Sequence record: PV889368.1
Reading direction: 5' to 3' (one strand)
DNA from: a phage
DNA: 40,015 nucleotides
The notes beneath the pieces are model-generated. The model was given only the letters and a program-made list of their open reading frames with translations. It did no database searches and was not told the origin of the DNA. This document shows positions 32,662 through 34,374 of the stretch, one piece after another; the first letter of the stretch is position 1, and every line of letters begins with the position of its first letter. A program made the translations under genes and the position numbers.

Positions 32662-33039
32662 CTACACTTCCACTGCGATGGTTGTCATCTTGGTCACAGT
32701 AAGACCACCAGCAAGCTCAACAGCATAGCGTATCGCCTCGTCTTTGGACCTGAAATCTTTTCCAGCAAGGTGGTAAATATCGCCGTTTATTACTTTGGTC
32801 GGCTTGCGGCTGACTGCTATGGCGTTGCTGAGGGAAAGCTCGCCTTTCGACCACTGAGAGTGCCAGCGAAGCACGCTCTTACTGGATACGTTGAAGTCAC
32901 TTGCCACCATCTCAAGCATGGAGTCAAGTCGAGAGGTGCCATATTGAGGCTGGCGCACCAAGTCGTATGCCTGTGCTACTCGGATTTTAAACTCTACAGA
33001 ATACTGATTGCGGGTCTTAGGTTGTGCTGGTGTAAACAT
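32662..33039 (-). CDS. Early protein with a transposase-type helix-turn-helix-like N-terminus (125 aa)
   Basis: ATG with AAGGA RBS; YSVEFKIRVAQAY....YGTS......VSSKSVLRWHSQW resembles IS3-OrfA-type HTH (from memory, unverified). Confidence 0.55.
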   Translation of the reverse strand: MFTPAQPKTRNQYSVEFKIRVAQAYDLVRQPQYGTSRLDSMLEMVASDFNVSSKSVLRWHSQWSKGELSLSNAIAVSRKPTKVINGDIYHLAGKDFRSKDEAIRYAVELAGGLTVTKMTTIAVEV

Positions 33040-33125: not shown

Positions 33126-33262
33126 AAGCTGCCGAGTATACTCTTGCGGCCCTTATAGACCGCTTTCAGGAGACGCATAGCCACATCGTGGTTTAACTGC
33201 CCGGTCTTGACCATAAGCCGGGCGTTGTTGACGTGATGCTGGCAGAGACCATAAGTTACCAT
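33116..33262 (-). CDS. gp0.4-like small protein (48 aa; T7 gp0.4 is an FtsZ inhibitor)
   Basis: Not in the ORF track; ATG overlaps the ocr stop (TAATG); MVTYGLCQHH...AMRLLKAVYKG..SILGSLHG resembles T7 gp0.4 ..VQYGLTAQ...AMAQLKELYEN..AIALESAE. Confidence 0.55.
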
Positions 33263-33771
33263 TACTCGCAGTCCTCTTCAGCAGCCGCAGGGTCGAACAC
33301 TACGTTATCGTTGACGTCTTCGACCTTCAGGTGGCGACCAATCGCATAGTGGTCTTTGGCACATGCGGTAGCGACCTCAAGAGACACAGCTTGCTCAATT
33401 ATTGCTCCTGTTTTAGCGTCAACTACCCAATACTCAGCCTCTTCGTCGCTCTCTTCAGCCTCAAACCATACCACATCCGAGCTATTAGACACATCGTTAT
33501 ACAGTGCCTCATAGATACGAGCTTGCAGTATACGCGTCACATCCTTGGTCTCAGGCATCAGCCCAGAGTCTTCAAACTCATGGTCAATACCATCAGCAGC
33601 CATCACCGTGAAAATCTCGTGGTAATAGTGCGGTACCTGACCGTCTACGACCTCATGCAGCGCATCATGGTAGTCGTCACCTTCAGCTATTTCGTCGTAC
33701 TGAATGCGCTCGTTAAATGCTTCAACAGTTGCAGCCAGCAGGTCATAGTATGCGCTAGCGTTACGTTCCAT
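33262..33771 (-). CDS. ocr: Ocr-like DNA mimic (gp0.3 family), 169 aa with an extended C-terminus
   Basis: [53 protein letters not shown] closely matches T7 Ocr [53 protein letters not shown]; about 50 aa longer than T7 Ocr (117 aa). Confidence 0.9.
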   Translation of the reverse strand: [169 protein letters not shown]

Positions 33772-33784
33772 AGTTATATCCTCT

Positions 33785-33860
33785 CAAAGTTAATTATGTG
33801 TGTGTTAGTGACTATCAGTCAGGCCGCTATGAGTCTAACGACCTGTAGTTAATCACTAGA
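33785..33860 (-). promoter_or_regulatory. Conserved early intergenic element, copy B (ocr leader)
   Basis: ctctcaaagttaattatgtgtgtgttagtgactatcagtcaggcc...gacctgtagttaatcact; near-identical to copy A. Confidence 0.45.
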
Positions 33861-34145: not shown

Positions 34146-34352
34146 TTAGTAAATGTAAGTTTCGACACTATCAATGATTACGAAATGCTGTGGGCGGCGA
34201 CTATTGAAGTCTACAAGCATTACTTGCAACCACTTACCGTTAATCTTAACTTTGTAGTTAGAGTAAGCCTGGCCTTTAACCATATCTTCAGTAGTTACTT
34301 TAACCTTGCGGCATTCCAGTTTAACAGTCTTCTCTTTATCTGCGTAGAACAT
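34146..34352 (-). CDS. Hypothetical early protein (68 aa), first gene of the early operon
   Basis: Start moved to ATG 34352 (MFYADKEK...) with GAGAGGA RBS inside conserved element A. Confidence 0.55.
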   Translation of the reverse strand: MFYADKEKTVKLECRKVKVTTEDMVKGQAYSNYKVKINGKWLQVMLVDFNSRRPQHFVIIDSVETYIY

Positions 34353-34374
34353 ACTAAATCCTCTCAAAGTTAAT

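Follow-up and report, generated by a model that had tools for sequence, protein, structure and literature searches.

A long-form Ocr protein with a predicted C-terminal mini-domain in a Kayfunavirus early region

Ocr is a textbook DNA-mimic anti-restriction protein, which also inhibits BREX and triggers PARIS. The window analyzed here, namely the whole 40,015-nucleotide stretch of the phage sequence record PV889368.1, encodes on its minus strand an Ocr-like protein of 169 amino acids (aa), read from ATG to TAA in the list of open reading frames (ORFs), and the question that this locus raises is what the segment beyond the Ocr domain is and what it may do for the phage. The first-pass annotation, accurate apart from giving no strand, described the protein as an Ocr-like DNA mimic with a C-terminal extension of about 50 residues that has no counterpart in T7 Ocr and that could add a second activity or target. 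On balance, the product is probably a two-module early protein, in which an orthodox Ocr carries an independently folding, tethered accessory binding module, encoded by an optional cassette whose value depends on the host.

The Ocr domain and the predicted fold of the extension

The first 103 residues are, to judge from the database matches, an orthodox Ocr. The Pfam family ocr (PF08684) matches residues 7-96 with an expectation value (E) of 9.5e-32 and 109.9 bits, against a cut-off of 25, and PHROG 2568, labeled "ocr-like anti-restriction", matches with E=3.7e-55. Residues 8-111 align without gaps to T7 Ocr (PDB 1s7z, 117 aa; E=4e-28), and identity over residues 1-94 is 55%; the designation as an Ocr-like DNA mimic is thus borne out. 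The full-length AlphaFold model has the elongated, all-helical fold of 1S7Z, with four helices in residues 6-95, the net charge of residues 1-103 is -18, as in T7 Ocr, and the gene shares the early position of T7 gene 0.3. Neutralizing a six-residue acidic block abolishes the activity of T7 Ocr (Mut3/Mut12; PMC3439906), and D60, D63, E65, E67, D68, and E74 of the window protein align with E60, D63, E65, E67, D68, and D74 of T7, all six critical positions being acidic. By homology, this module should dimerize into an acidic, DNA-like shape and in this form block the enzymes of type I restriction-modification and of BREX.

Past residue ∼103 only acidic low-complexity sequence aligns with T7 Ocr, and residues 114-169 (YWVVDAKTG...EEDCE) have no counterpart there, so that the extra part amounts to about 56-59 residues, in keeping with the first-pass annotation. 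T7 Ocr ends after a short, disordered acidic tail, whereas the window protein inserts at this place a linker and a folded domain of 48 residues. T7 Ocr keeps its ability to block EcoKI cleavage when it is cut short after residue 99 or 109 (PMC3439906), which means that restriction inhibition needs nothing beyond residue ∼100 and, therefore, that the region farther on is free to carry something else.

Structure prediction, which the first-pass annotation had proposed as a check, returned a confident fold for this region. Modeled alone with AlphaFold2 (AF2) from 40 sequences, the C-terminal mini-domain (hereafter C-domain) has a mean predicted local distance difference test score (pLDDT) of 88.5 and a predicted template modeling score (pTM) of 0.71, and consists of strands at residues 114-118 and 124-129, a helix at 131-143, and two further strands at 148-152 and 157-159. 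The C-domain is predicted to fold independently on a flexible acidic tether, because its own model is confident, the linker is predicted with low confidence (pLDDT 69 for residues 101-110 of the full-length model) and differs in length by up to ∼15 residues between long-form relatives, and the full-length pTM is only 0.50, a value that fits two domains without a fixed mutual orientation.

Among 102 distinct sequences the motif YWVVDxxTG and a second motif of 17 positions are nearly invariant, as are the acidic residues D118, E151, D152, D155, and D160; the variable positions (123, 124, 132, 133, 135, 141, 143, 144, and 146) lie in the helix and in the loop that follows it. A metal site formed by C137, H141, and H147 was considered and rejected, as H141 is variable. 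The terminal acidic tail holds a conserved cysteine (...EEDCE or ...EDCDD) in long and short Kayfunavirus Ocr proteins and in those of Przondovirus, and this cysteine is absent from T7 Ocr.

The charge of the extension invites comparison with ArdA, an anti-restriction protein of ∼166 aa made of several small domains, which is encoded on plasmids and transposons and which, as a dimer, imitates a stretch of DNA longer than that imitated by Ocr. Accordingly, the linker, the mildly acidic C-domain, and the tail might make the polyanionic surface longer at each end of the Ocr dimer, so that the protein would cover a larger DNA-binding footprint, as for instance that of type I motor subunits or of other DNA-tracking defense complexes. 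The length of the protein matches that of ArdA, its net charge is -33 versus -28 for T7 Ocr (linker -7, core of the mini-domain -4, tail -4, and as much as -11 for the domain of the type found in phage IME15), and the five acidic residues of the C-domain listed above are nearly invariant. However, with 17% acidic and 8% basic residues the core is less acidic than the Ocr domain (22% acidic), the whole protein has no Pfam match other than ocr, ArdA included, which leaves the resemblance an analogy, and the predicted flexibility of the linker does not support a rigid, DNA-like extension. An extended mimic is therefore rather unlikely and is given only minor weight here.

Occurrence, constraint, and age of the C-domain

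The alignment of homologs, also proposed in the first-pass annotation, placed the long form in 72 GenBank phage records, including gp0.3 of K1F (tblastn and blastn), and distinguished three lineages of C-domain. In a collection of 5.8 billion proteins, the best 120 of 502 cluster matches are all long forms, or deletion variants derived from them, of 162-179 aa. K1F gp0.3 and the other long-form Kayfunavirus Ocr proteins have the same architecture; the K1F protein, also 169 aa long, is 86% identical overall, and its differences are only allelic and fall mostly in the C-domain helix and the next loop (positions 132, 133, 135, 141, 143, 144, and 146). In databases these proteins are labeled merely antirestriction protein or Ocr, and the 169-aa protein of Hafnia phage Ca is tabulated simply as "DNA mimic ocr" (PMC8861465). 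In several records the long gene is also misannotated as "protein kinase", "N4-like RNA polymerase", or "NinH protein" (ZH4, CY1, IME177, LM33_P1, SHAK7854/9454, and CHX131). The first-pass annotation had considered that the extension might be common and already characterized: common it is, and full-text searches, in a coverage that did not take in the K1F genome paper, turned up no paper that characterizes or discusses an Ocr extension. The family is known and the long architecture has had database entries ever since K1F, while the extra folded domain is undiscussed in the literature found, and a large share of the natural relatives of Ocr carry it under the plain label "Ocr".

Among 12 long genes of Kayfunavirus, the pooled ratio of nonsynonymous to synonymous change (pN/pS, Nei-Gojobori) is 0.20 for the Ocr domain and 0.49 for the C-domain, and in the comparison of IME15 with KFSA9 the C-domain ratio is 0.22. 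Nonsynonymous change is about three times faster in the C-domain (pN of 0.144 versus 0.049), and the mean amino-acid identity is 74% for the C-domain and 91% for the Ocr domain. Because the extension is widespread in phage records and its pN/pS is below 1, it is, on this comparative evidence, translated and constrained by purifying selection. The same data bear on the caution in the first-pass annotation that a sequencing error or a frameshift near residue ∼100 might have created a false read-through. Rare relatives do carry real or artifactual frameshifts here (L004-L006; P0003), and no other support for an artifact was found; against it, the reading frame is kept in the 72 GenBank phage records and in more than 100 clusters, the ratio indicates selection on the protein, the fold is predicted with confidence, and the short alleles described below differ by clean in-frame deletions rather than by frameshifts. 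This explanation is so improbable that it can be set aside.

The C-domain comes in two further forms. One is found in nine records, namely in Stenotrophomonas phage IME15, several Aeromonas phages, and Escherichia phage Ebrios, and the other in the 183-aa protein of Kosakonia phage Kc166A. C-domain identity is 31% between the window and the IME15 type and 33% between the IME15 and Kc166A types, and over the whole protein the window Ocr is 61-62% identical to those of IME15, KFSA9, and Kc166A. The residues invariant across these lineages (W115, A134, G145, V150, E151, V157, and P161) are mostly structural. The C-domain is, as far as such divergence can tell, old, because its three lineages are only ∼30% identical while the Ocr domains of the window and IME15 remain 80% identical. 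In the Teseptimavirus-like phages IME15 (870-2194) and KFSA9 (648-2019), a T3-type S-adenosylmethionine (SAM) hydrolase occupies the 0.3 position and a long-form Ocr is encoded just upstream of the 0.7 kinase; since both the hydrolase and the long-form Ocr are present, these early regions hold two anti-restriction strategies.

The C-domain was met only in the context of Ocr and was found nowhere else, neither as a stand-alone protein nor in the bacterial genomes or plasmids searched. A phmmer search with residues 98-169 against 1.84 billion representatives yielded only two spurious matches (a tetratricopeptide repeat protein and a Big-like protein), a scan of 185,579 bacterial and archaeal genomes and the search of plasmids did not find the domain, and the IMG/VR search with the C-domain recovered long Ocr genes only. 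Word-indexed searches with the domain or with a profile of 23 sequences recovered nothing but fragments of this gene, and are weak negatives in that they missed full-length long Ocr proteins as well. As for known families, the extension has only an insignificant Pfam match to DUF6172 (E=0.05, below the cut-off), no match in PADLOC or NCBIfam, and, in the PDB profile search, nothing beyond a match to botulinum toxin that is due to chance (E=0.22), and Foldseek against viral models gave nothing at E≤0.001, the best matches being one 170-aa protein and small uncharacterized phage proteins.

The structure comparison also pointed to ClpS, of whose ∼80 residues 42-43 align with the C-domain. If this likeness were meaningful, the C-domain might be a ClpS-like module that docks on the N-domain of ClpA, and thereby interferes with ClpAP proteolysis or controls the turnover of Ocr. 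Two helices of ClpS build its substrate pocket. The match covers about half of the ClpS core, and the C-domain, which has one long helix, a short terminal turn, and four strands in 48 residues, leaves no room for the pocket-forming helices. Furthermore, the L7/L12 C-terminal domain, T4 Dmd, and AcrIF9 score nearly as well; Dmd and AcrIF9 are 8-16% identical to the C-domain, a likeness at the level of fold that is typical of very small domains. Homology to ClpS was rejected at the sequence level, given a probability of 0.07% when the C-domain was compared with E. coli ClpS by hhalign and the lack of a Pfam ClpS match, and, the core being incomplete as well, a ClpS-like role is considered very improbable. 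All these resemblances are accordingly treated as those of a generic small α/β motif and give no evidence of function.

Loss of the cassette and the possible role of the C-domain

Of the 175 records that match the window with an identity of at least 80% in the DNA of the Ocr domain, 72 encode the C-domain, and the other side of this polymorphism is represented by short-form Kayfunavirus proteins of 110-114 aa, such as that of EcoDS1. Their Ocr-domain DNA is up to 94.5% identical to the window, and they share its ...EEDCE tail and its overlap with the downstream gp0.35-like gene, but they lack the cassette. Short forms can be derived from the long form by removing a block in frame and leaving the tail unchanged. 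The 110-aa forms of Kayfunavirus PDP351P4 and of several IMG/VR contigs end in ...WFEAEEDCE, that of EcoDS1, in contrast to the long Ocr of K1F, is 110 aa long and ends in ...WFEPEEDCE, and other short forms end in ...SDEEDCE; the Przondovirus forms end in ...EEDCDD.

A perfect 9-bp direct repeat, GCTGAAGAG, flanks 59 codons of the window gene, with its two copies 177 bp apart. When 110-aa alleles were aligned with it at the DNA level (L007 and L013), exactly one copy of the repeat was found, at the junction, and DNA alignment of the 114-aa alleles placed their junction at another, GA-rich repeat. There are thus at least two deletion junctions, and deletion must have happened independently two or more times. 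Such loss between short direct repeats is reportedly well known in the T7 early region from the work of Studier and colleagues in 1979. Other variants depart from the long form in different ways: a frameshift within the linker leaves two overlapping ORFs, one for a 117-aa Ocr and one of 59 aa that contains the C-domain (L004-L006, from the Logan runs SRR33193082-84, three runs of one study), a deletion in seven contigs joins the C-domain at K149 to the C-terminus of gp0.35 (P0098), and one form is truncated at 122 aa (P0003).

The simplest history that these alleles suggest is that the acidic tail received a single insertion long ago and that recent losses have occurred repeatedly, and comparison of the natural alleles shows a C-domain that is apparently dispensable in nature. 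The retention of the tail in short forms need not mean selection on the tail itself, and is ambiguous because loss in frame also preserves the overlap with the gp0.35 start codon.

Such losses raise the question of whether the C-domain is a near-neutral passenger, that is, the relic of a historical insertion with little or no function, for which only in-frame continuity with the tail and with the gp0.35 start matters. The two or more in-frame deletion junctions and the frameshift and fusion variants, all in apparently viable phages, agree with this idea, as do the roughly threefold faster nonsynonymous change and the fact that T7 Ocr functions without this region. On the other hand, pN/pS is below 1 in both lineages tested, the fold and the key motifs are kept across three lineages at ∼30% identity, and a useless segment of 177 bp should not persist so widely in the small, deletion-prone genomes of T7-like phages. 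A mere passenger is thus a possible explanation, albeit an unlikely one.

The preferred explanation is the two-module protein. The C-domain is more likely to have an accessory, dispensable role than a core one, because it is predicted to fold independently, is encoded by an optional cassette that has been deleted repeatedly, and evolves faster than the Ocr domain. It would have arisen as an old in-frame insertion into the acidic tail of Ocr, would be maintained by purifying selection in many phages, and would be lost time and again by deletion between short direct repeats. In the T7 Ocr structure of Walkinshaw et al. from 2002, each monomer reportedly has its C-terminus at the distal end; because of this position, one extra domain may be expected at each distal tip of the Ocr dimer, beside the flanking subunits of the bound enzyme. 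The two C-domains could act there as tethered accessory binding modules that add a host target or widen the range of defense complexes engaged, or they could alter the recognition of the mimic by host sensors, with a benefit that would depend on the host.

A bolder version of the two-module idea, doubtful at present, holds that the C-domain is an autonomous, previously unrecognized anti-defense or anti-sensor module for which Ocr is the delivery vehicle. Ocr would dock in the DNA channel of an immune complex and the tethered domain would disable a neighboring subunit or, as another option, would mask Ocr from Ocr-sensing systems such as PARIS; the presence/absence polymorphism and the variable surface of the helix could then be read as traces of an arms race in which the phages face certain host systems.

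The contribution of the C-domain is directly testable, as nature provides long alleles with matching short ones, for example K1F with EcoDS1, and also the 110-aa deletion forms. If the C-domain has a target of its own, it would represent a new family of small inhibitors and an example of modular anti-defense proteins. If it has none, it would be a documented dispensable domain that was acquired a single time and that deletion between direct repeats has removed again and again in the early regions of T7-like phages.

Gene 0.3 and its early-region setting

The features of the locus are collected in Table 1. The window is a Kayfunavirus genome (K1F-like, Studiervirinae, of the T7 family) in reverse orientation, and the ∼8 kb surrounding ocr are 92-94% identical to many Kayfunavirus records. 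By synteny, ocr lies at the gene 0.3 position, upstream of the phage RNA polymerase gene, and the order of genes 0.3 and 0.35 is common to the window, K1F, CLB_P1, and EcoDS1.

Table 1. Features of the ocr locus, with coordinates in the window
Feature	Coordinates	Strand	Basis or remarks
Gene 0.3 (long-form ocr)	33262..33771	-	169 codons and TAA; ORF list, Pfam/PHROG/PDB matches, 86% identity to K1F gp0.3
Shine-Dalgarno GAGAGG	33780..33785	-	8 nt 5' of the ocr ATG; read from the sequence
Ocr DNA-mimic domain, residues 1-103, predicted all-helical	33463..33771	-	
Poly-acidic linker, residues 104-113	33433..33462	-	Net charge -7; length variable among relatives
Predicted C-terminal mini-domain, residues 114-161, β-β-α-β-β	33289..33432	-	AF2 model, conserved motifs, pN/pS 0.49
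Acidic tail AAAEEDCE, residues 162-169	33265..33288	-	Common to short-form Ocr proteins
Direct repeat copy 1, GCTGAAGAG, codons 105-107	33451..33459	-	DNA alignment with short forms; agrees with the window sequence
Direct repeat copy 2, GCTGAAGAG, codons 164-166	33274..33282	-	DNA alignment with short forms
gp0.35-like gene, 49 aa	33113..33262	-	Directly 3' of ocr; ORF list, PHROG 5058 match
Upstream hairpin with internal loop	33806..33858	-	Minimum free energy (MFE) -24.5 kcal/mol, z = -4.4
Downstream hairpin with internal loop	33067..33119	-	Directly after gp0.35; MFE -24.4 kcal/mol, z = -3.35

The stop codon of ocr overlaps the ATG of the gp0.35-like gene as TAATG (33260-33264, minus strand), an arrangement that K1F, CLB_P1, EcoDS1, and the short-form alleles also have, and that suggests translational coupling of the two genes. 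Relatives of the gp0.35-like gene carry PF26807 (Phage_T7_GP04).

Two other ORFs on the minus strand deserve mention. A 73-aa ORF (34146-34367), upstream of a gp0.2-like gene, has no PHROG or Pfam match, and the same holds for an early ORF of 125 aa (32662-33039), which is absent at the same position in K1F and EcoDS1; phage ASO2B has a possibly similar gene, judged from its matching position.

The two hairpins that flank ocr and the gp0.35-like gene are 80% identical to each other, and their upper stems differ through paired changes. By analogy with T7, we infer that both are RNase III processing sites of the T7 type, and that the pair probably delimits an early mRNA unit of two genes, ocr and gp0.35.
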